A stretch of DNA of 12,495 bases from Clostridia bacterium (GTDB lineage Bacteria > Bacillota > Clostridia > Christensenellales > Aristaeellaceae): the NCBI GenBank assembly GCA_045599485.1, contig JAZRWA010000089.1:1-12495 (forward strand). Direction: 5' to 3'. Below, piece after piece: positions 2 through 12,158 of this stretch (position 1 is the first letter of the stretch; the number at the start of each line of letters is the position of its first letter). Both the position numbers and the translations under genes were made by a program. The notes beneath the pieces are model-generated. The model ran no database searches, had not been told where the DNA came from, and was given only the letters and a program-made list of their open reading frames with translations.

Positions 2-766
2 GAAGATGCTCATAAGGCGGCGGGAGAAAGATTGAAGGACTATCCCGGTTTTCGACCGATTCACGGTAACTTTCATGACATAAGAGAGCTTCTGCCTGAA
101 GGCACTATGCTCGACGGCGGTCTTTTGGATCTGGGTGTTTCCTCCTATCAGATCGATACGCCCGAAAGAGGATTCTCTTATCATGAAGATGCGCCGCTGG
201 ACATGCGCATGGATCGTTCACAGGGAGTCACCGCGGCCGAATGGCTGGCGATGCAGGATGAAAAGACCATCATGAACGCACTGTATGATTACGGTGATGA
301 GAAATGGGCGGCCCGCATCGCCAAGGTGATCGTGGAAAGACGTGCAGCAAAGCCCATTCTGACCACAACGGATCTTGTCAGCTGTGTGGATGCGGCCATA
401 CCGAAGGCAGTGCGCCGTAAGGACGAAGGGCATCCGGCAAGAAGGACGTTTCAGGCGGTACGTATCGCCGTGAACGACGAGCTGGCTCCTTTGTAGCAGG
501 CGCTGAACGACTGGATGAGCATGATTCGCCCCGGCGGCAGGTTGTGTGTGATCACTTTTCATTCGATTGAAGACCGAATTGTGAAGCATGCGTTCAAGAC
601 GATGCAGAATCCCTGTATCTGTCCGCCGAAGGCTCCGATCTGCACCTGTGGGAGAAAACCAATTGCCAGGGTGATGGGCGGCGGCGCCATCAAGGCTTCT
701 GCCGAAGAATTGGAAAAGAATTCACGCGCGCACAGCGCAACGCTGCGCGTCGCCCAAAAACTGTAA
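2..766 (+). CDS. rsmH: 16S rRNA (cytosine1402-N4)-methyltransferase RsmH/MraW, 5'-truncated at the window edge; one reading frame with an in-frame TAG at 494-496
   Basis: ORFs 32-496 and 515-766 share a frame (both 2 mod 3) and the frame is open from position 2. Upstream of the TAG: [37 protein letters not shown]. Downstream: [20 protein letters not shown] and the Cys-rich CICPPKAPICTCG tail. All are typical RsmH motifs. Ends in TAA at 764-766. Confidence 0.88.
494..496 (+). other. In-frame TAG inside rsmH (candidate sense codon)
   Basis: GAG CTG GCT CCT TTG TAG CAG GCG CTG; the same frame carries conserved RsmH sequence on both sides. Confidence 0.8.
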
Positions 767-2451: not shown

Positions 2452-2552
2452 AAATAACAGCCGATTTGCTGTACCATATCATGCAAAGCGGCGGGTTCAA
2501 ACTGCATCAGTTCTACGTATATTCTTGCATACGATGGCCGGAAAAGGGAAAA

Positions 2553-3254
2553 ATGATAAAATACGAAAGTGACCATTACATATTTAACTACAATAAAGGA
2601 ACACAGGCAGAACGGGATATTTTGACCATTGCCAAGGGGCAGGAAGACTGCTTCCGTTATATCTGCAAAGTTCTGGACGCGCAGCCTGACTTCAAAATTG
2701 AATACTTCCTCTGCGATACACCCGAAAAAGTGGGACATATTTACGGCGATGATGACCCCTGCAACGCCTTTGCGGCGCCACCAAACAAAATCTATGCAGT
2801 GTATAACGAGCAAGTGAAGTGCATCGGTTTCCATGAGGATGTTCACCTTATCAGCTATCTGATCAACCGCCCCGATCCTCCCGCCATTCGGGAAGGTTTG
2901 GCCATGTACTTTGATCGCAAGTGGTGGGGAATCCATAATCTGGATTGGTGCGGATTCTTCCTGAAAACCGAACGGTATATTTCCGTTGCAGCATTGCTGA
3001 CCAGAAAAGTGTTTTTCGAGACGGACTGTACCATATGCTATCCGATCATGGGAGCCTTTACGGATTATCTGATTGCAACCTATGGTCATGCAGCCTATCT
3101 GGAAATGTATAAGCAGCAGGATATTCCGCAGGCCATGAAGGCAGTATTCGGTAAATCTCCGGAGGAATTGAACGCAGAATTTATCGGCTATGTGAAGCTG
3201 TTCCGCATTGACCCGGAACTGGAAAAGCGGATGGAAGAATTGTTTTGCCAGTAA
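2553..3254 (+). CDS. Hypothetical protein with an HExxH motif, possibly peptidase-MA-like (gluzincin-type)
   Basis: ORF 2376-3254; I place the start at ATG 2553, preceded by AAGGGA. It contains FHEDVH (HExxH), followed about 19 residues later by REGLAMYF, which resembles the third-ligand Glu segment of Peptidase_MA_2-type proteins. No signal peptide is evident. TAA stop. Confidence 0.5.
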   Translation: MIKYESDHYIFNYNKGTQAERDILTIAKGQEDCFRYICKVLDAQPDFKIEYFLCDTPEKVGHIYGDDDPCNAFAAPPNKIYAVYNEQVKCIGFHEDVHLISYLINRPDPPAIREGLAMYFDRKWWGIHNLDWCGFFLKTERYISVAALLTRKVFFETDCTICYPIMGAFTDYLIATYGHAAYLEMYKQQDIPQAMKAVFGKSPEELNAEFIGYVKLFRIDPELEKRMEELFCQ

Positions 3255-3348
3255 AAATGCAAGCAGTTCAACTTTGGTGAGCGCCAAAGCAAGAACACAA
3301 GCATCACTTGATGTAATCAAAAAAGCAGATGCTTCCTATAGAGTACAA

Positions 3349-3391
3349 AACAAGCAATGCACAATCCGGATAGGATCGAGCATTGCTTGTT
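3349..3391. terminator. Candidate bidirectional terminator hairpin between convergent genes
   Basis: Perfect 12-bp stem: aacaagcaatgc (3349-3360) pairs with gcattgcttgtt (3380-3391). The loop is 19 nt. It is flanked by TTTATTT on the plus strand and TTTTGT on the minus strand, and sits between the plus-strand stop at 3254 and the minus-strand stop at 3464. Confidence 0.5.
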
Positions 3392-3463
3392 TATTTACCG
3401 CTCGTTTAGCAGATACCGATTATTCGTTTTATCAAGAGTTCACTAAACGGTTGCTGCTTTTGA

Positions 3464-4771
3464 TTATCGGCGTAATCCCTTCGGATAATGGTTTTTGATC
3501 AGGTCATCGGAGATTTTACCGAAGCCAAGAGTATAGCCCTGCAGGGAAACGGTGCAATAGCCTTTTAGCGTTCCGTTGTAAGGAATGGCATCGCCGTGGA
3601 TATAAGCCGCTGCTTCCGCTTCGGTGAGGGCAATTTCCTTTTTGCTTCTTTCTGCTAAAGCCAAAGCGTGATTTGGAACAAAATTCTTGCCCTTGAGTTC
3701 ACCCACATGAAACCCTGCACGGAGGACCTTGATTCCCTTCAGATCGGGGATGATGGCAGGGATGAGCGTAAGCTGATTGCCGAAAAGAGCGTTGGGCATC
3801 AACTCATAGCCAAGTTCGTCCATAAAAGATTTGACAGGCGGAAGGCTGCGTTGATCGGGAGCAGGCAATGTGCCATAAGCTGACGCAAATTTATCAGAAT
3901 CGATGTTCTTTTGAAGAAGGGCAATAAAATGGCCCTCTCCGCGGATTTTGTGCGGCCAGAGATGCAGCATGCCATCCGAAGAATCAGCTGTCTACGGCAA
4001 GGAAAATGGCACCAATGAGAAATCGGGATGACGGGTAAGAAACGCTGTAATGGATTGATCGTTTTCGAGGGTATTGAAAGTGCAGGTGCTGTACACCAAG
4101 GTGCCGCCGGGTTTAAGCATATCGGCTGCGGCATCCAGGATACCGGCCTGTCGTTCGGCACAGTGAGCGGGGGAAGCTTCCGACCATTCCAAACGAGCCT
4201 GCGGATCCTTGCGGAACATGCCTTCTCCGGAACAGGGTGCATCGACAAGGATGCGGTCAAAGAAATAGGTCCATTTCAATCGGAGCTGATCGGGATATGC
4301 GGAAGTTACGATACAGTTTTCGATCCCCATGCGTTCAATGTTGGAGGAGAGAATCTGAGCACGAGACGGAATAGGCTCATTGGATACGAGCAGAGCGGGG
4401 TGAAAGGACATGGCTATTTGCGTGGATTTTCCACCGGGTGCGGCACAAAGATCCAGCACAGTATCGGTGGGCTTTGGGGCGAGTACAGCAGCGGCAGCCA
4501 TAGCGGATGGTTCCTGAATGTAATAAGCCCCTGCATCATGAAGGATCGTAGCTCCGGCGCGTGATGTGTTGGCCAGATAATATGCATGGGGAACATAAGG
4601 AATCTTTCCGATAAGATCTTCGGAAGGCATAGGAGTGCGGTCGTCCCGGAAGCGGATACCGCGGGTGTGCGGATCGAGATACGTTTTCAGGAAGGCTTCG
4701 GTTTCGTTTCCAAGCTGGGTACGGATGTTTTCAATAAAAAGAGGAGGTAACGCATGCAGTGTATCACTCAT
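3464..4771 (-). CDS. RsmB/RsmF (NOL1/NOP2/Sun) family rRNA m5C methyltransferase with an RsmF-type C-terminal domain; in-frame TAG at 3992-3994
   Basis: ORFs 3992-4801 and 3464-3970 share a frame, with 7 sense codons (TADSSDG) between them. The N-terminal part has LDLCAAPGGKS (SAM motif I), DAPCSGEGMFRKDP (motif IV) and YSTCT (motif VI). After the TAG comes LHLWPHKIRGEGHFIALLQK, typical of the RsmF C-terminal domain. I chose the start at 4771 (MSDTLH) because GGAGGT lies upstream. TAA stop. 435 codons in total. Confidence 0.8.
3992..3994 (-). other. In-frame TAG inside the RsmF-like methyltransferase gene (candidate sense codon)
   Basis: Minus strand TTG CCG TAG ACA GCT; the catalytic domain lies upstream and the RsmF C-terminal domain downstream in the same frame. 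Confidence 0.8.
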
Positions 4772-4797
4772 TTTGTTACCTCCGTAAAATGATTTGA

Positions 4798-5274
4798 TCA
4801 TGTGTTGGAATCGGAATAAATCTTGCTGCGATAACGGCGAACGGGGACTTCGGTTTGCGGAGGCAGTATCTGATCCTGCTGCTCGGGAGCATCATTGGAA
4901 GAAGCATCTGATGGAAGCTCATTCTGCTGATACAGATCGGCAACGCCTGTCTCGTTAAAGGAATAGCCGCTGATGCCGTCGGTATATCCGCCTTGAAAAC
5001 CGCCTTGATAGAAGGCATCGTCATAGGCGGAGGCAGACGGAATTTCACGATGAGGTTTGCCAATCAGAAAGGGACGCCAACGCAGCACATAGACAGTCAG
5101 GTCTGCCGCACAGCCAAGCAGCAGCAACAGGAGAAATGCGACAAACCAGTAACGGTTCAGCCACGACAGAAACGAACCGGAACCGCTGCCGCTGAATGCT
5201 TGCAGTAACTCCTGAAAGAAACTGCGCAGCCAGCCGAGCAGAGAAGAAATTAAAGAAGTGGCAAATCTGTTCAT
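4798..5274 (-). CDS. Hypothetical small membrane protein
   Basis: 158-aa ORF with one clear hydrophobic helix (YWFVAFLLLLLLGCAADLTVYVL) and a low-complexity G/Q/S-rich tail. It is tightly packed between cdaR (stop 5277) and the RsmF-like gene. TGA stop. I recognise no family. Confidence 0.55.
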   Translation of the reverse strand: MNRFATSLISSLLGWLRSFFQELLQAFSGSGSGSFLSWLNRYWFVAFLLLLLLGCAADLTVYVLRWRPFLIGKPHREIPSASAYDDAFYQGGFQGGYTDGISGYSFNETGVADLYQQNELPSDASSNDAPEQQDQILPPQTEVPVRRYRSKIYSDSNT

Positions 5275-5276
5275 GG

Positions 5277-6317
5277 TTATTCGTTGGAGACGATTTCAAT
5301 CGTGACAGTCAGGGAATCGGCGCTGCAGTAGATGACGCCGGTTGGTTTGCTGAGGGTGACATTTTTCTGGAAGGAAGCGGTGGCGCCGCTGATGTCGATT
5401 TGACTTTCGATATACTCGATCAGATGCAGTTCATCCAGGGAATTGAGCAGTTTTTCGTTTGCGGCGAAAAGAACGGAAGAGGGTTCCACTGTGATACGCT
5501 TGAGCGCATAGCCTTCAGCCGGCTGACCACAGGTGAGGTCGGCGGTGTTGATGACCAGCGATTTGGTGGGATAGATCGTTTGCTCAACAATCAGGCTGTC
5601 CAGCAGGACCGACTCGGAAGTGACCTCGATGAGGGCAGAATCAACGGTGCTCTGGTCGGAGGAGATCAAACGGAAGGGAACAGCAGTGCGCTCGTTTCCG
5701 GAAGAACCGCTCAAAAGGGACAAGTCATAATCGGCAACACAGCGGATGATATTACGTACACGGGAAAGCGGACCGGAGACCGTAACATAGAGCGGGTCAA
5801 CGGCGGCGGAGGTGGCATACATTCCTTCGGGCAGTTGACCGCTGGTCTCAAGGCGCACAGGAATACGGCTGCGGGTGACATACTCGTCCACCTGCAGGGT
5901 GACGGTGCCGATGCTGACTTCCGTGACCGTTCCATAGGTGGAGGAATTGGTGGAGAGAATGTTGAGAGTTTGCGTACCGGTGCCGCGAATTCTGGACAGA
6001 TCAATACGGACATTGAAGTTGGAGGCCGAGACGGTGTTGTAGACATTCTGCGGTACTTCTGCTTTGAGGCGGATAAGCGGCAGATTGTCGAGACCATCGA
6101 CAACGATATAGCCGTTGCGGCGGAGCGTATCGGAGCCGATGATGTTGATGCTCACATCGTTGAAGGTTTTTTCACGGGTCAGAGAGCTGTCGGCGGTGAT
6201 GAGACCGCTCCACAGGCAGACGGCAAGCAGAAGGGACAAAAGCTTCCACGGCCAGTTGTGGATTAAAAACTGAAGAGCCTGCTTCAAATACGGCTTTGGT
6301 TCAAATGTCTTTTTCAT
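5277..6317 (-). CDS. cdaR: YbbR-domain protein CdaR (regulator of the diadenylate cyclase CdaA)
   Basis: Lies immediately downstream of cdaA. It has an N-terminal TM helix (WKLLSLLLAVCLW) followed by repeated beta-rich YbbR-like modules (patterns of the form VxVxGxxxxL ... DLS). I place the start at ATG 6317 (MKKTFEPKP) with a GGGAGA RBS. TAA stop. Confidence 0.78.
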   Translation of the reverse strand: MKKTFEPKPYLKQALQFLIHNWPWKLLSLLLAVCLWSGLITADSSLTREKTFNDVSINIIGSDTLRRNGYIVVDGLDNLPLIRLKAEVPQNVYNTVSASNFNVRIDLSRIRGTGTQTLNILSTNSSTYGTVTEVSIGTVTLQVDEYVTRSRIPVRLETSGQLPEGMYATSAAVDPLYVTVSGPLSRVRNIIRCVADYDLSLLSGSSGNERTAVPFRLISSDQSTVDSALIEVTSESVLLDSLIVEQTIYPTKSLVINTADLTCGQPAEGYALKRITVEPSSVLFAANEKLLNSLDELHLIEYIESQIDISGATASFQKNVTLSKPTGVIYCSADSLTVTIEIVSNE

Positions 6318-7140
6318 GCTTCTATCTCCCTTTGAACCATTTGAAGGCGGCGGAAACGGGGGAAGGTTTTTTGCTGCGATACATGCCGTGGAGAATGTTT
6401 TCCAGTGAGGCACTATCAAGATGACGAGTCAGTTTTCCGTTGTGAGCGGTACTGATGATGCCGGTTTCCTCACTGACGATCAGCACAATGGCATCGGTGG
6501 TTTCGGAAACACCGAGCGCAGCGCGATGCCGGGTGCCGAGATCACGGCTGATGGAGCTGGATTCACTGAGGGTGAGGAAGCAGGCACCGGCGATGATGCG
6601 TGTATCACGGATAATGACCGCGCCATCGTGCAAGGGGGTGTTGGGTTCAAAGATGTTTTCCAACAGGGGAGCAGAAATGACGCTGTCCAACCGGGTACCG
6701 GTCTCGATGATCTCTTTTAAGCCGGTCTGCTGTTCAAAGACGATGAGCGCACCGACACGGCGGCGTGAAAGGTTGTTGAGGCAAAGGATGATTTCACTGA
6801 CGATGCGGGCGTTTTCTTCTTCGTCATTGAGAAAATGACGAAATTTGGTGCCGCGGCCAACCTGCTCGAGAATGCGGCGCAATTCGGGCTGAAAGAGGAT
6901 AACAAGTGCGACAGCACCGTTGCTGACGATCAGGTTCATGACCCAGGACAGCGCAGTCAACCCAAGCATGTTGGAAACCAGACAGGCAAGCAAAAGCACG
7001 ATGAGACCCTTGACAACTTCACTGGCGCGGGTGCCGCGAACAAGCATCAGGAGCTCATAGATCAAAAAAGAAACGACGATTATATCAAAAATGTCAGTCA
7101 GAGACGGACGATTAAAAATGTTCCAAAGAAAGTTTTGCAT
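6301..7140 (-). CDS. cdaA: Diadenylate cyclase CdaA (DacA); a TAG at 6322-6324 lies six codons before a TGA at 6301-6303
   Basis: Three N-terminal TM helices plus a DAC domain with DGAVII, GTRHRAALGVSETTDA and VSEETGIIS. Under the standard code the CDS is 6322-7140. With TAG as sense it gains KHEKDI and ends at TGA, overlapping the cdaR start. Confidence 0.88.
6322..6324 (-). other. TAG near the end of cdaA (either a stop or a sense codon followed by a 6-codon tail)
   Basis: Minus strand GGG AGA TAG AAG CAT GAA AAA GAC ATT TGA. Confidence 0.45.
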
Positions 7141-8405: not shown

Positions 8406-8434
8406 ATTATAGTTGATTCGGAAGAGCATATCAA
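8406..8434 (-). promoter_or_regulatory. Candidate sigma-A promoter for the lipoprotein gene
   Basis: On the minus strand: TTGATA (8434-8429), a 17-nt spacer, then TATAAT (8411-8406). It lies about 35 nt upstream of ATG 8371. Confidence 0.5.
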
Positions 8435-9321
8435 GATAATTTTTTGTGAACATATTCGCGCAGCAGACCATCACAGTTGGTTCGTTCGGAAACGATCAGC
8501 TATGACAGGTGGAGGAAGTCCATCACTGCGCAAAGGATTGCAAGCCCGGTTGGGAGAATGTTGCCGCGTCCCTTCGGGCAGCCGGGAATCATTTCACGTT
8601 CCAAAGGCGTGAGAGGAGCGATCTGCGTCAGAAGCTGCCTTACCTGGTCGCGGTGAAGATGAACTCCTTCAGCAGCATCGGTACGGGCAATCATCCTTGC
8701 GGATGCCGTTCCGGTGCCACCGACAAGGTATACGGCAGAACCCGCAGGAAAGGAGGCGGGCACAGAGGGCTCGTTCATGATGATATTACGCGCAGCCGCA
8801 AGGGCTTTTTGGACATCGGCGGCTTCGTGGATCGGGCAGACTGAAAATAGCCGGGAAGCTCCCAACTGCAGAGAAAGACATCGGGGGTGCATGTCGGTAT
8901 CGTAGTAAGCCAGTTCGGTGGATCCGCCGCCGATATCGATCACGGCACCGGGGGCATACCCTGCTGATCCGAGCAGGGAAAAACGGGCTTCTTCCGCACC
9001 GGAGATGATCTGGAGAGGGAGCCCGCAGGCAGAAAAAATGGCGTGGGCGAGAGCATCGGAGTTTTCGGCGTCGCGGACAGCGCTTGTGGCGTAAACACCA
9101 ATCAACACGGAATGCTCCTGCGCGGCGATGGCTTGAAGACGACGGATATCCTCCGCGGTTTGCTCAATCGTTTCCTGCGGAAAACGGCGGCTTTGGCTCA
9201 AATGAAGGAAGAGACGGGATTCGATACGATGACGGGTTGGATTGCTGAGGGAAGTGTCGGTATCCGCGCAGAGCATACGCGCCGAATTGGAACCGATAAC
9301 GATGACGGCGATCCTGTTCAT
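8431..9321 (-). CDS. Ppx/GppA-family phosphatase (exopolyphosphatase / pppGpp phosphohydrolase-like); in-frame TAG at 8500-8502
   Basis: IGSNSARM and DIGGGSTEL are ASKHA-fold phosphate-binding motifs. ORF 8500-9321 stops at TAG, and the frame then continues for 22 codons (LIVSERTNCDGLLREYVHKKLS) to TGA at 8431-8433. This gives a typical length of about 296 aa and a GLLxE-like domain end. Confidence 0.78.
8500..8502 (-). other. In-frame TAG inside the ppx/gppA-like gene (candidate sense codon)
   Basis: Minus strand CTG TCA TAG CTG ATC, followed by 22 further sense codons and then TGA. Confidence 0.7.
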
Positions 9322-9671
9322 AGCTGATCACTTTCTACGACATACATTTCAACCGTCTGCGTGCTGTCGCCAAGCGCCTACGGGTTGGCGATGATAAAAC
9401 GAATTTCTCCGGGAACACTGTAACCATACATTTCACGGGCTTTGGTCATGATGTATTCGGTGGTCTGCAGGATGGAGACCTCGGCGGAAAGCTGACGGGC
9501 TTCCAGCGTTTGTTTCGCGCTGCGCTATTGTAGCGACGCGTATTCCTGCTGCATGGCGGCGGAGTCGCGGTGGACGCGGATGATCATGAGCAAGCCGATG
9601 GCAAAAATGACAGACAGAACACAGACTGCGAAAAGCGGAGATACGGTTTTTTGTTTCAGTCGTTCGGCCAT
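9318..9671 (-). CDS. Septum formation initiator (FtsB/DivIC family) protein; two in-frame TAGs at 9525-9527 and 9378-9380
   Basis: Absent from the ORF track because the TAGs cut it into pieces shorter than 60 aa. My manual translation is MAERLKQKTVSPLFAVCVLSVIFAIGLLMIIRVHRDSAAMQQEYASLQ-TAG-RSAKQTLEARQLSAEVSILQTTEYIMTKAREMYGYSVPGEIRFIIANP-TAG-ALGDSTQTVEMYVVESDQL-TGA. It has the expected TM helix, coiled coil and ARExxGYxxPGE motif. A GGAGGA RBS precedes ATG 9671. The TGA overlaps the ppx ATG as ATGA. Confidence 0.65.
9378..9380 (-). other. Second TAG in the divIC/ftsB-like gene (a stop under the standard code; if sense, a 19-codon tail follows)
   Basis: Minus strand AAC CCG TAG GCG CTT; the frame stays open to a TGA that forms an ATGA overlap with the ppx start. 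Confidence 0.5.
9525..9527 (-). other. In-frame TAG inside the divIC/ftsB-like coiled coil (candidate sense codon)
   Basis: Minus strand CTA CAA TAG CGC AGC; the conserved ARExxGYxxPGE motif lies downstream in the same frame. Confidence 0.75.
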
Positions 9672-9698: not shown

Positions 9699-10193
9699 TT
9701 ATTCATGGACGGTTTCGGCTTCTTCAAAATCGGGATCGGCAGGGGGGAGCTTGTCGCATACCATGAAGAGGGCATCTTCACCGTTGTCCTCGTAATATTT
9801 TTTTCGTACTCCTACCTGAATGAAGCCCAGAGAGGTGTATACATGCTGTGCGGTCAGATTACTGCGCCGTACCTCAAGCGTCATATAAACCACGCCGAGA
9901 TTGGCGGCGTACTGAATGAGCGCGGCTGTCAGCTGCTTGCCGAAACCGTGGCCGCGGTATTCCTCTTTGATGGCAATGTTGGTGATATGGCCTTCGTCAA
10001 TCACGACCCAAACGCCGGCAAAGCCGATGATGTTTCCATCAAGCTCAGCAACCAGATAGCGTGCACAGGCGTTGCGCGTCATCTCGTCTTGAAAAGAACG
10101 GAGCGACCAGGGCATCGCAAACGTAGCGGCCTCGATCGCCTGAACGGCTTCACAATCCTCATAAGTCATGCGGCGGATGGTAATGTCACTCAT
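9699..10193 (-). CDS. rimI: Ribosomal-protein-alanine N-acetyltransferase RimI (GNAT)
   Basis: GNAT fold with the acetyl-CoA motif RGHGFGKQL. It sits in the conserved tsaE-tsaB-rimI arrangement and overlaps the tsaB stop by 8 nt. TAA stop. Confidence 0.82.
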   Translation of the reverse strand: MSDITIRRMTYEDCEAVQAIEAATFAMPWSLRSFQDEMTRNACARYLVAELDGNIIGFAGVWVVIDEGHITNIAIKEEYRGHGFGKQLTAALIQYAANLGVVYMTLEVRRSNLTAQHVYTSLGFIQVGVRKKYYEDNGEDALFMVCDKLPPADPDFEEAETVHE

Positions 10194-10881
10194 GCTTCAT
10201 GGCCTCCCGGGCGGCACGCTCCCGCTCTGCCTGCGGCGGACGCAGATAGACAGGCTGCAGGGAAAGATAATCAACGGCTTCATCAGCATGCCGCAAGGCA
10301 AGGGAAGCGGATGCGGCGGAGCGCAGATAGGTGTTCTGCATCGAAGCGAAAAGAGCCTTTTTACCAAACAGTTCCGTCAGTCTTTCATGATAAGCGACAG
10401 CACCGTCTCCGGTGAACAGGAAGGGGCCGCCAAAGGTGCGGACCAGATCGGCATATTCCTCCAGTTTCATGGCACTGTCGGGCATCAGTCGTTCACCGTT
10501 CAGGAAGGCAGCACCGTATACCTGTCCGACACGTGCATCCTGCAGGGGGCAGATCATCATACCGGGAGCATCGATACCGCAGGCGGTGACTTCGAGCGAA
10601 GAGAGGGCAAGGCAGGGAAGATTGAGCGCATGTGCCATGGCTTTGACGGCGGAAACGCCGATGCGGATGCCGGTAAAGGAACCGGGCCCTGCGGTTACCG
10701 CCAGCAGATTGAGCTGCTGAAGCGTAACGCCGGAGCGGCAAAGTGCCTCTTCGACCATGGGCATAATGCTTTCGGAGTGCTTCAGCTGATTGGCGGCGCA
10801 GGCTTCGTAACGGATGCGGTTTTCATCAGCGACGGCAACAGAGGCAACAGGACCGGAAGTATCAAGAGCGAGAACGATCAT
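10186..10881 (-). CDS. tsaB: tRNA t6A37 biosynthesis protein TsaB (YeaZ)
   Basis: MIVLALDTSG and TAGPGSFTGIRIGVSAVKAMA motifs. The ATG at 10881 overlaps the tsaE TGA (ATGA). TGA stop. Confidence 0.88.
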   Translation of the reverse strand: MIVLALDTSGPVASVAVADENRIRYEACAANQLKHSESIMPMVEEALCRSGVTLQQLNLLAVTAGPGSFTGIRIGVSAVKAMAHALNLPCLALSSLEVTACGIDAPGMMICPLQDARVGQVYGAAFLNGERLMPDSAMKLEEYADLVRTFGGPFLFTGDGAVAYHERLTELFGKKALFASMQNTYLRSAASASLALRHADEAVDYLSLQPVYLRPPQAERERAAREAMKHE

Positions 10882-11324: not shown

Positions 11325-12077
11325 TTATTCGCCCGGGAACATTTGGGCGAGACCTTTCTGAATACCGGTATCCCAGAACCACCAGTCATGGACGCCGTCC
11401 CACTCCTCGTAGCTGCAGGGAATGTTTTTGGTATGGAAAAAATCATGGAGCTTGCGGGACATGCGGAGCAATCCGTCCTCGGTACCGCAGGCCATATAGA
11501 GCTTTGGCAGCTTCTTTCCTCCCGCAAGGGCTTTTTCGGTGAGCTTTTCGATGTCGTTTTCTTCACCGAAGGGCAGTTCGGGACCGAGAATGGCCCTCCA
11601 TTCATCCTGCTATGAACCTGCGACATCGTCGCGCCAAAGGCTGCGATCCATGGGATAGAAGCAGGAAGAGAGAGCGATGCATCCGGCATATTTATCCGGG
11701 GCTGTGGCGACACATTTCATGGCACCATAACCGCCCATGGAAAGACCGCCGATATACAGGTGCTCGGGATCGGTCGGAATGCGGAATTCCGCGGCCATCT
11801 TGGCGGGAAGCTCTTCAAAAACATAAGTGAAGTATTTAAGACCGTAGGCCATATCGATGTACCAGGAACGCTGCACCTACGGCATGACGACAGCAAGACG
11901 ATATTTATCAGTCAGACGACCGATGGCAGTACGGCGGACCCAGGCATCGCAGTTATCACTGAGACCATGCAGCAAAAGAAGGGTACGCTCAGGTGCGGCA
12001 TGGTCGGGAAGAAGAACATTGACGTGTGTATACATGGACAGACTGTCTGCCCGAATGGTTCCGTGATAAAAAGACAT
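11325..12077 (-). CDS. Esterase-family alpha/beta hydrolase (esterase D / tributyrin esterase-like); two in-frame TAGs at 11877-11879 and 11610-11612
   Basis: Three contiguous same-frame segments. Segment 1: MSFYHG...LLLLHGLSDN...AVVMP. Segment 2: VQRSWYIDM...GGLSMGGYGA, containing the GxSxG nucleophile. Segment 3 is my manual translation: QDEWRAILGPELPFGEENDIEKLTEKALAGGKKLPKLYMACGTEDGLLRMSRKLHDFFHTKNIPCSYEEWDGVHDWWFWDTGIQKGLAQMFPGE, carrying the candidate catalytic Asp and His. A GAGGTG RBS precedes ATG 12077. TAA stop at 11325-11327. Confidence 0.8.
11610..11612 (-). other. Second in-frame TAG inside the esterase gene (candidate sense codon)
   Basis: Minus strand GGT TCA TAG CAG GAT; the candidate catalytic Asp and His segments lie downstream in the same frame. 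Confidence 0.8.
11877..11879 (-). other. In-frame TAG inside the esterase gene (candidate sense codon)
   Basis: Minus strand ATG CCG TAG GTG CAG; it lies within the conserved VVMP-x-xxRSWYxDM block. Confidence 0.8.
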
Positions 12078-12129
12078 GGTATTCACCTCTGCCTGACAAT
12101 TTGATGATCGATCCTGTCCGGCTCCTCTA

Positions 12130-12158
12130 ATTGTAGAGAAACAAGGGGAGAATGTCAA
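12130..12158 (-). promoter_or_regulatory. Candidate sigma-A promoter for the esterase-tsaE-tsaB-rimI operon
   Basis: On the minus strand: TTGACA (12158-12153), a 17-nt spacer, then TACAAT (12135-12130), with A/T-rich sequence upstream. It lies about 50 nt upstream of ATG 12077. Confidence 0.6.

Follow-up and report, generated by a model that had tools for sequence, protein, structure and literature searches.

In-frame TAG codons in a Clostridia locus point to a recent reassignment of UAG, most probably to glutamate

The DNA analysed here is a 12,495-nucleotide stretch (the window) of contig JAZRWA010000089.1, assembly GCA_045599485.1, from a Clostridia bacterium of the Aristaeellaceae. Its GC content is 52.5%, and the data showed no sign of genome reduction. 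It carries housekeeping genes in the synteny blocks rsmH-rsmI-coaX, cdaA-ybbR and tsaE-tsaB-rimI, as well as a serine esterase gene whose two in-frame TAG triplets had been the subject of an earlier note on this sequence. To follow up those two triplets, the whole window was re-read with TAG as a sense codon and the resulting open reading frames (ORFs) were scanned against Pfam. Eight in-frame TAGs, with no in-frame TAA or TGA, were located in the window genes (approximately 3,575 codons), a restriction to one stop type that has a probability of about 1.5e-4 if the stop types are equally frequent. They lie in 6 of the 14 complete or near-complete genes: rsmH, rsmF, cdaA and ppx carry one each, and the esterase gene and a DivIC-like gene two each. 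No frameshifts were found in the window genes.

The esterase gene belongs to the PF00756 family of alpha/beta hydrolases. As the earlier note had stated, a single frame runs from ATG 12077 to TAA 11325-11327 with exactly two internal stops, both TAG, which we located at codons 67 and 156. The PF00756 match was unbroken over both of them: with X at the TAG codons, residues 16-243 spanned positions 7-248 of the 251-position profile and scored 63.9 bits (cut-off 22). Solved esterases also matched the read-through product, with 4rgy as the best PDB entry (E=1.5e-45). The product was then aligned with 23 database homologs, the check that the note had suggested. This alignment of 24 sequences contained no gap or frame change at codon 67 or 156, and S113 (GLSMGG), D201 (CGTED) and H230 (GVHDW) fell in invariant columns, mapping the catalytic triad to the expected residues. 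Ser113 lies between the two TAGs while Asp201 and His230 follow the second, confirming that the triad is split by the TAGs, and the promoter and ribosome-binding site that had been described upstream of the gene are also present (Table 1). Codon 67 aligns to the E of the MPEVQRSWY motif in each of the 22 homologs spanning this column, and codon 156 corresponds to E in the three nearest homologs (P0001-P0003). Compared with the Esterase D / tributyrin-esterase family (PF00756; 4rgy, 6vh9, 2uz0), the read-through product is a full-length member that retains the GxSxG elbow together with Asp and His as the other triad residues, and only the coding is unusual.

The remaining TAG-bearing genes gave a similar picture. 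Pfam domains run across the TAGs not only in the esterase but also in rsmH (where the TAG separates MraW profile positions 56-218 from positions 228-308), rsmF and the DivIC-like gene, and PDB homologs were colinear across the TAGs in the TAG-bearing genes that were aligned. In ppx, the stretch beyond the TAG includes the conserved ...VSE..REG.. end of the domain. The DivIC-like gene is invisible under the standard code, and its terminal TGA overlaps the ATG of ppx (ATGA, 9318-9321); operon-type overlaps were likewise seen at tsaE/tsaB (10878-10881) and tsaB/rimI (10186-10193). These overlapping junctions indicate a normal bacterial operon organisation and support the gene models. Of the 16 recognisable genes of the window, eight end in TAA and eight in TGA, leaving none with a TAG terminator.

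To place the window among its relatives, it was treated as lineage A and compared codon by codon with lineage B, a sister lineage represented by syntenic contigs, among them L001, L044, L045 and L050. At least 10 independent samples contributed lineage B contigs, most of them as Logan and European Nucleotide Archive (ENA) assemblies made with various pipelines; these contigs share 93-100% identity among themselves and about 87% nucleotide identity with the window. Lineage B is also represented by assembly GCA_024500545.1, and its samples include SRR27361835 and ERZ27247129. Lineages A and B are two sister species-level lineages. In public collections, proteins of this clade were found in NCBI, ENA and Logan sources only; those of the window belong to an NCBI contig of 12,496 nucleotides, of which the window is practically all, with no flank beyond it. 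As outgroups served 39 GTDB species-representative loci collected by a CoaX scan (L005-L043), which are Clostridia/Christensenellales metagenome-assembled genomes (MAGs) from gut and rumen with CoaX 52-88% identical in amino acids to that of the window, and a Joint Genome Institute (JGI) contig, L051, whose CoaX is 91% identical.

Across the clade, 14 TAG sites were identified in 10 genes. Six are common to both lineages (esterase codon 67, rsmF codon 261, cdaA codon 273, ppx codon 274 and DivIC-like codons 49 and 98), two occur in the window only (rsmH codon 165 and esterase codon 156) and six in lineage B only (rsmF codon 280, cdaA codon 108, ppx codon 72, rimI codon 37, tsaB codon 141 and codon 37 of an NrdG-like gene), with the result that rsmF, cdaA and ppx each carry two TAGs in lineage B. 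All 11 sister-lineage contigs with coverage of esterase codon 67 have TAG there, and esterase codon 156 is GAG or GAA in the sister-lineage contigs. Nine of the 14 sites vary within the clade (DivIC-like codon 49 is counted both as common to the two lineages and as variable, having CAG in L050), and the alternative codon specifies Glu at six of them, Gln at two and Val at one. The six sites with GAG or GAA alternatives are rsmH codon 165, rsmF codon 280, cdaA codon 108, rimI codon 37, tsaB codon 141 and esterase codon 156. The terminal stops were conserved as TAA or TGA in 12 of the 12 genes compared between the window and L044.

No internal TAG was found in the outgroups (the 39 loci and L051), where TAG occurs at gene ends only, in a tally that took one non-overlapping best-scoring coding frame per region. 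Of the eight intact genes of L051, one terminates with TAG, and TAG accounts for 7 of 260 stops (2.7%) in L005-L043, next to 129 TGA and 124 TAA, at moderate GC content. The presence of internal TAGs in lineages A and B and their absence from the outgroups confine the trait to a narrow clade, and the rarity of TAG as a terminator in the relatives that are not recoded may have been a precondition for its reassignment. One outgroup locus, L024 (CAVGBO010000002.1), is titled Phocaeicola dorei and carries a Clostridia-type locus, with CoaX 69% identical to that of the window and synteny with L023, L028 and L029; this bin is probably mislabelled or contaminated.

Table 1. Positions of the genes, TAG sites and esterase signals in the window
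Feature	Position	Strand	Remark
rsmH, 5' end cut by window edge	2..766	+	single ORF only with TAG as sense
in-frame TAG, rsmH window codon 165	494..496	+	GAA in sister lineage (L052, L053)
rsmF	3464..4774	-	RsmB/F catalytic domain before TAG; RsmF C-terminal and PUA domains after
GAG, rsmF codon 280; TAG in lineage B	3935..3937	-	
in-frame TAG, rsmF codon 261	3992..3994	-	common to lineage B
cdaA (diadenylate cyclase)	6301..7140	-	ends at TGA 6301-6303 if TAG is sense
in-frame TAG, cdaA codon 273	6322..6324	-	6 codons before conserved TGA; common to lineage B
GAA, cdaA codon 108; TAG in lineage B	6817..6819	-	
ppx (Ppx/GppA family)	8431..9321	-	22 codons beyond TAG, to TGA
in-frame TAG, ppx codon 274	8500..8502	-	common to lineage B
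GTG, ppx codon 72; TAG in lineage B	9106..9108	-	
DivIC/FtsL-like gene	9318..9671	-	117 codons, two TAGs; PF04977, 46 bits, residues 21-96
in-frame TAG, DivIC-like codon 98	9378..9380	-	common to all three lineages examined
in-frame TAG, DivIC-like codon 49	9525..9527	-	TAG in L044, CAG (Gln) in L050
GAG, rimI codon 37; TAG in L044	10083..10085	-	
GAG, tsaB codon 141; TAG in lineage B (L001, L044, L045, L050)	10459..10461	-	
esterase gene, PF00756 family, alpha/beta hydrolase	11325..12077	-	250 sense codons and TAA, through two TAGs
in-frame TAG, esterase codon 156	11610..11612	-	...DDVAGS-TAG-QDEWRAIL
in-frame TAG, esterase codon 67	11877..11879	-	...AVVMP-TAG-VQRSWYIDM
ribosome-binding site GAGGTG, end 6 nucleotides before ATG 12077	12084..12089	-	read from sequence
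promoter-like site TTGACA-17-TACAAT, 11/12 match, upstream of esterase	12130..12158	-	

Selection on either side of the TAGs was assessed from the substitutions between the window and L044, the pair from which the substitution spectrum used below was also taken. Downstream of the first TAG of each gene, 239 synonymous and 89 nonsynonymous differences were counted (56, 44 and 280 at the three codon positions), compared with 171 and 67 upstream of it (44, 29 and 197), demonstrating that purifying selection is as strong after the TAGs as before them. Even in the 19-codon stretch that follows DivIC-like codon 98, the differences between lineages are concentrated at third codon positions. Pseudogene formation in a decaying genome, or errors of sequencing or assembly, could account for the truncated look of 6 of 14 genes under the standard code and for the fragmentary public gene calls; yet the interruptions are all TAG, with no TAA or TGA among them, no frameshift accompanies them, genes that are usually essential (cdaA, tsaB) are among those affected, and these TAGs turn up again in at least 10 independent samples processed by different pipelines. 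Taken together, the equal selection, the recurrence across samples and the exclusive use of TAG exclude decay and artefact, to which we attach a negligible probability. The view of the earlier note that the esterase gene has not decayed thus held up: the gene is intact, given its colinearity with the family, the triad residues at the places that the note had named, its expression signals and the purifying selection downstream of the TAGs.

A foreign origin of the locus was also considered. A contaminant from a eukaryote with a UAR=Glu code, in which UAA and UAG both specify Glu, was rejected, since TAA is clearly a stop here and the genes have a bacterial organisation with ATGA overlaps. An origin from phage was rejected as well, the housekeeping genes being syntenic with MAG contigs of more than 100 kb.

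The earlier note had treated the two TAGs as a property of the esterase gene, and a regulatory device in which two amber codons gate expression through occasional suppression would fit the pair of TAGs and the good expression signals of that gene. This framing did not survive the wider comparison. In-frame TAGs occur in five further, unrelated genes of the 12.5-kb window and in tsaB, rimI and the NrdG-like gene of the sister lineage, and TAG swaps with GAG or GAA between close relatives, esterase codon 156 itself being simply GAG or GAA in the sister lineage; a device peculiar to the esterase is accordingly highly improbable. TAGs in unrelated genes together with the exchange between TAG and GAG or GAA point therefore to a change of the code at the level of the organism, of which the esterase is one instance, and TAG is very probably a sense codon in this clade. 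Under a code in which TAG specifies Glu, the esterase would most probably be an ordinary intact serine esterase of 250 residues with Glu at positions 67 and 156; rsmH, rsmF, cdaA, ppx and the DivIC-like gene would be intact likewise, their broken appearance being an effect of the standard code.

The identity of the amino acid was examined at the variable sites, in the homolog columns and through the substitution spectrum. With a Glu frequency of 6.5%, Glu at six or more of nine variable sites has a chance probability of 5e-6. The column of rsmH codon 165 in the outgroups reads E7 Q1 D1 A1, with E in E. coli RsmH, and rsmF codon 280 and cdaA codon 108 are E in the outgroups; that of ppx codon 274 reads E31 Q19 R14 S12 K10 among its commonest residues in homologs, with E in 8jgu. 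Alignment of cdaA codon 108 to PDB 6huw, in which an EEE run is set against EE, lends weak support to Glu. PDB alignments of tsaB codon 141 and rimI codon 37 were uninformative, as both sites lie in poorly aligned loops, and rsmF codon 261, in a variable loop with G in L051 and V in 3m4x, was likewise uninformative about the amino acid.

The most direct competitor is a genome-wide UAG sense codon that specifies glutamine, a meaning it has in TAG-recoded phages and many eukaryotes, and is read by a supE-like tRNA-Gln(CUA). It draws on the two variable sites that pair TAG with CAG, one of them at a Gln kept in 118 of 119 homologs, on Q being the second commonest residue in the ppx columns, and on the ease of the change from CAG to TAG, a single transition. 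To discriminate between the two amino acids, we used the 4-fold degenerate sites, at which 231 C<->T and 57 G<->T differences (four times fewer) separate the window from L044. A Gln assignment predicts about 12.5 swaps with TAG among some 77 CAG codons, but none was seen between the two (P=3.6e-6; this rises to 0.08 if TAG is 5-fold disfavoured). Conversely, six exchanges between Glu codons and TAG were seen where Gln predicts about 0.8 (P=2e-4), given that just three ordinary E<->Q replacements occurred among about 290 E/Q positions. A Glu assignment predicts about 6.5 swaps from GAG to TAG, of which 3-4 were seen. The fixed TAG at esterase codon 67, set against E in every homolog covering it, is a further argument against Gln, and we regard glutamine as the sole meaning of UAG as improbable. 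TAG acts as a synonym of GAG, exchanging with GAG and GAA at close to the neutral G<->T rate.

Several observations weigh against Glu or limit the data from which it is derived. The strongest single objection to reading TAG purely as Glu comes from the NrdG-like gene (a radical S-adenosylmethionine activase at 928-1482 of L044). At codon 37, within a CFQPQTWDF motif, TAG stands in place of the CAG of the sister contigs, and 118 of 119 homologs have Q in this column; the TAG is present in one contig only (L044). CAG also stands opposite TAG at DivIC-like codon 49 (in L050), and ppx codon 72, with GTG for Val, is the sole variable site with neither Glu nor Gln as its alternative. Three of the fixed TAGs lie in variable or terminal regions that carry no information on the amino acid. 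That none of the 16 window genes ends in TAG is insignificant by itself, with P about 0.7 at the frequency of the relatives (7 of 260 stops). ARAGORN detected no CUA tRNA on the window or any of 53 loci, and no tRNA of any kind on the window or the clade contigs; prfA, the gene of release factor 1, is likewise missing from the region. All the data amount to about 15 kb per lineage from a single syntenic region. An Rfam scan of the window returned no matches.

The CAG counterparts may reflect Q-to-E replacements arising through fast C-to-T mutation, or may hint at ambiguity of decoding. In an ambiguous system, UAG would have both Glu and Gln inserted, for example by a CUA tRNA charged by a non-discriminating glutamyl-tRNA synthetase (GluRS) and partly amidated by GatCAB, or reading as sense would compete with termination by a retained release factor 1 (RF1). 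The mixture of counterparts (six Glu and two Gln) fits such a system, cdaA codon 273 and DivIC-like codon 98 are near enough to the gene ends that they could still terminate in part, and archaeal genomes with a pyrrolysine code do keep a release factor. Against it, genes with two TAGs would suffer quadratically from inefficient read-through, Gln counterparts are about as numerous as fast C-to-T mutation and conservative Q-to-E replacement would yield, and the extension after DivIC-like codon 98 has a coding pattern of substitution. We consider an ambiguous UAG unlikely.

Pyrrolysine or another non-canonical residue was weighed as well, which would make the clade a bacterial counterpart of the archaeal Code 34. 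Reading of UAG as pyrrolysine, known from some archaea, is the sole documented genome-wide reassignment of this codon in prokaryotic cells, and some Firmicutes possess the pyrrolysine machinery. The near-neutral swaps among TAG, GAG and GAA, and the TAG set against an invariant Glu of the aligned esterase homologs, speak against such a residue: a bulky lysine derivative is not expected as a synonym of Glu, and neither AAG nor AAA was found at any variable site. No methylamine methyltransferase or pyl genes were seen in the 12.5-kb region, which is a weak argument in view of its small size. This possibility appears very unlikely. Given that TAG is a sense codon, it likely encodes Glu.

From these sequence comparisons we consider it probable that UAG is a sense codon throughout the organism, most probably for Glu, through a recent reassignment in a narrow clade in which UAA and UGA remain stops. 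The mechanism that we propose draws on general knowledge of stop-codon reassignments. UAG would be decoded by a dedicated, Glu-charged tRNA bearing a CUA anticodon, whose simplest source would be a duplicated tRNA-Glu(CUC) with one anticodon change, and RF1 would be lost or disabled, leaving RF2 to terminate at UAA and UGA. Decoding of UAG must be efficient, because several genes carry two TAGs. Codon capture is the probable route, in which few genes would have needed to change before TAG was freed, after which TAG would re-enter genes by mutation from GAG; it is favoured by the finding that TAG ends only 2.7% of genes in relatives that are not recoded. The TAGs near the ends of cdaA (codon 273) and the DivIC-like gene (codon 98) are possibly former terminators, now followed by short C-terminal extensions. 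With eight TAGs next to 224 GAA or GAG codons in the window, about 2 per 1000 codons, the low frequency of TAG and its many lineage-specific occurrences suggest that the change is recent. We lean, with less assurance than for the reassignment itself, towards a previously undescribed bacterial code with UAG=Glu, caught at an early stage of codon capture from a nearly unused terminator.

Other features of the locus and its database record deserve description. Public gene calls made with table 11 store proteins of the clade as fragments (P0137, P0146, P0147; P0001, P0145), namely a 66-residue N-terminal part of the esterase, a 175-residue "esterase", a 168-residue C-terminal part of RsmF, a 273-residue Ppx and a 140-residue TsaB, and the DivIC-like gene is without any public call in the lineage of the window. 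About 1 kb between the convergent coaX and rsmF genes (2452-3463) is missing in lineage B, whose coaX and rsmF genes nearly adjoin. Within it, an ORF on the forward strand (2547-3254) encodes a protein of about 235 residues with an HExxH motif (FHEDVHL) and without TAG, for which no Pfam or NCBIfam match was found; the segment may have arisen by insertion of a small metallopeptidase-like gene specific to this lineage. A conserved ORF of 158 residues resembling a membrane protein lies on the reverse strand between ybbR and rsmF (4798-5274); it occurs in lineages A and B, with a counterpart of 36% identity in L051, and has no family match.

Stop-codon reassignments known from bacteria all involve UGA (Codetta PMC8629427; KACI preprint; gTranslate preprint). 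Three bacterial codes are counted in the field (tables 11, 4 and 25), and screens of 250,000 to 2.7 million genomes have reported no reassignment of UAG in bacteria. No bacterial code with UAG as sense was found in the literature to mid-2026, a coverage that is incomplete, so that a prior description is possible; a UAG=Glu code appears to be without published bacterial precedent. Table 4 (UGA=Trp) is used by Mycoplasmatales, several endosymbionts and Eggerthellaceae, and table 25 (UGA=Gly) by Gracilibacteria and Absconditabacteria. The reassignment proposed here resembles both in being a genome-wide change from stop to sense in the bacterial chromosome of one clade, with a single stop type inside conserved genes and gene calls fragmented under table 11. 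It differs from them in the codon and its release factor (UGA and RF2 there, UAG and RF1 here), in the amino acid, Glu, and in the very narrow and apparently recent clade, relatives at 91% CoaX identity not being recoded.

Closer in meaning are the eukaryotic nuclear UAR=Glu codes of peritrich ciliates (table 30) and Blastocrithidia nonstop (table 31), where UAG is likewise Glu, read by cognate tRNA-Glu with stop-matching anticodons. In those codes, however, UAA has changed too and eukaryotic release factor 1 (eRF1) is altered, whereas UAA still ends 8 of the 16 genes here, in a bacterium with separate RF1 and RF2. Phages recoded at TAG (code 15, TAG=Gln) include crAss-like, Lak and other gut phages. 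They share with this clade the reassignment of UAG alone and the setting in gut and rumen, with suppressor tRNAs that are known there and proposed here, but theirs are phage genomes with Gln, while the TAGs described here lie in housekeeping genes with a substitution pattern that rejects Gln. In the archaeal Genetic Code 34, all TAG codons are read as pyrrolysine (Kivenson et al., bioRxiv 10.1101/2024.09.30.615893). That code is also a genome-wide reassignment of UAG in a prokaryotic cell with a sporadic, narrow distribution, short C-terminal extensions at former TAG ends and poor visibility to detection by coding density; it differs in being archaeal and dependent on the pyrrolysine machinery for a 22nd amino acid, whereas TAG here behaves like a synonym of a canonical Glu codon. 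In mechanism the proposed code would match these known systems, with a suppressor-type tRNA and an altered release factor; its domain of life, its pairing of codon and amino acid, its youth and its narrow distribution would set it apart.

If the proposed reassignment is correct, it would be a new code and would indicate that the codon of RF1 can also be captured in bacteria. It would represent a natural, datable capture of the amber codon by a free-living bacterium of moderate GC content, and a case so young that recoded and non-recoded relatives can be compared gene by gene, allowing codon capture to be set against models with an ambiguous intermediate. It would also explain the fragmentary database proteins of this lineage and imply that detection by coding density misses such codes. 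Finally, the clade would harbour a natural amber suppressor system that inserts Glu and would be shielded from phages and horizontal gene transfer by a natural genetic firewall; the two features would be of interest to synthetic biology.

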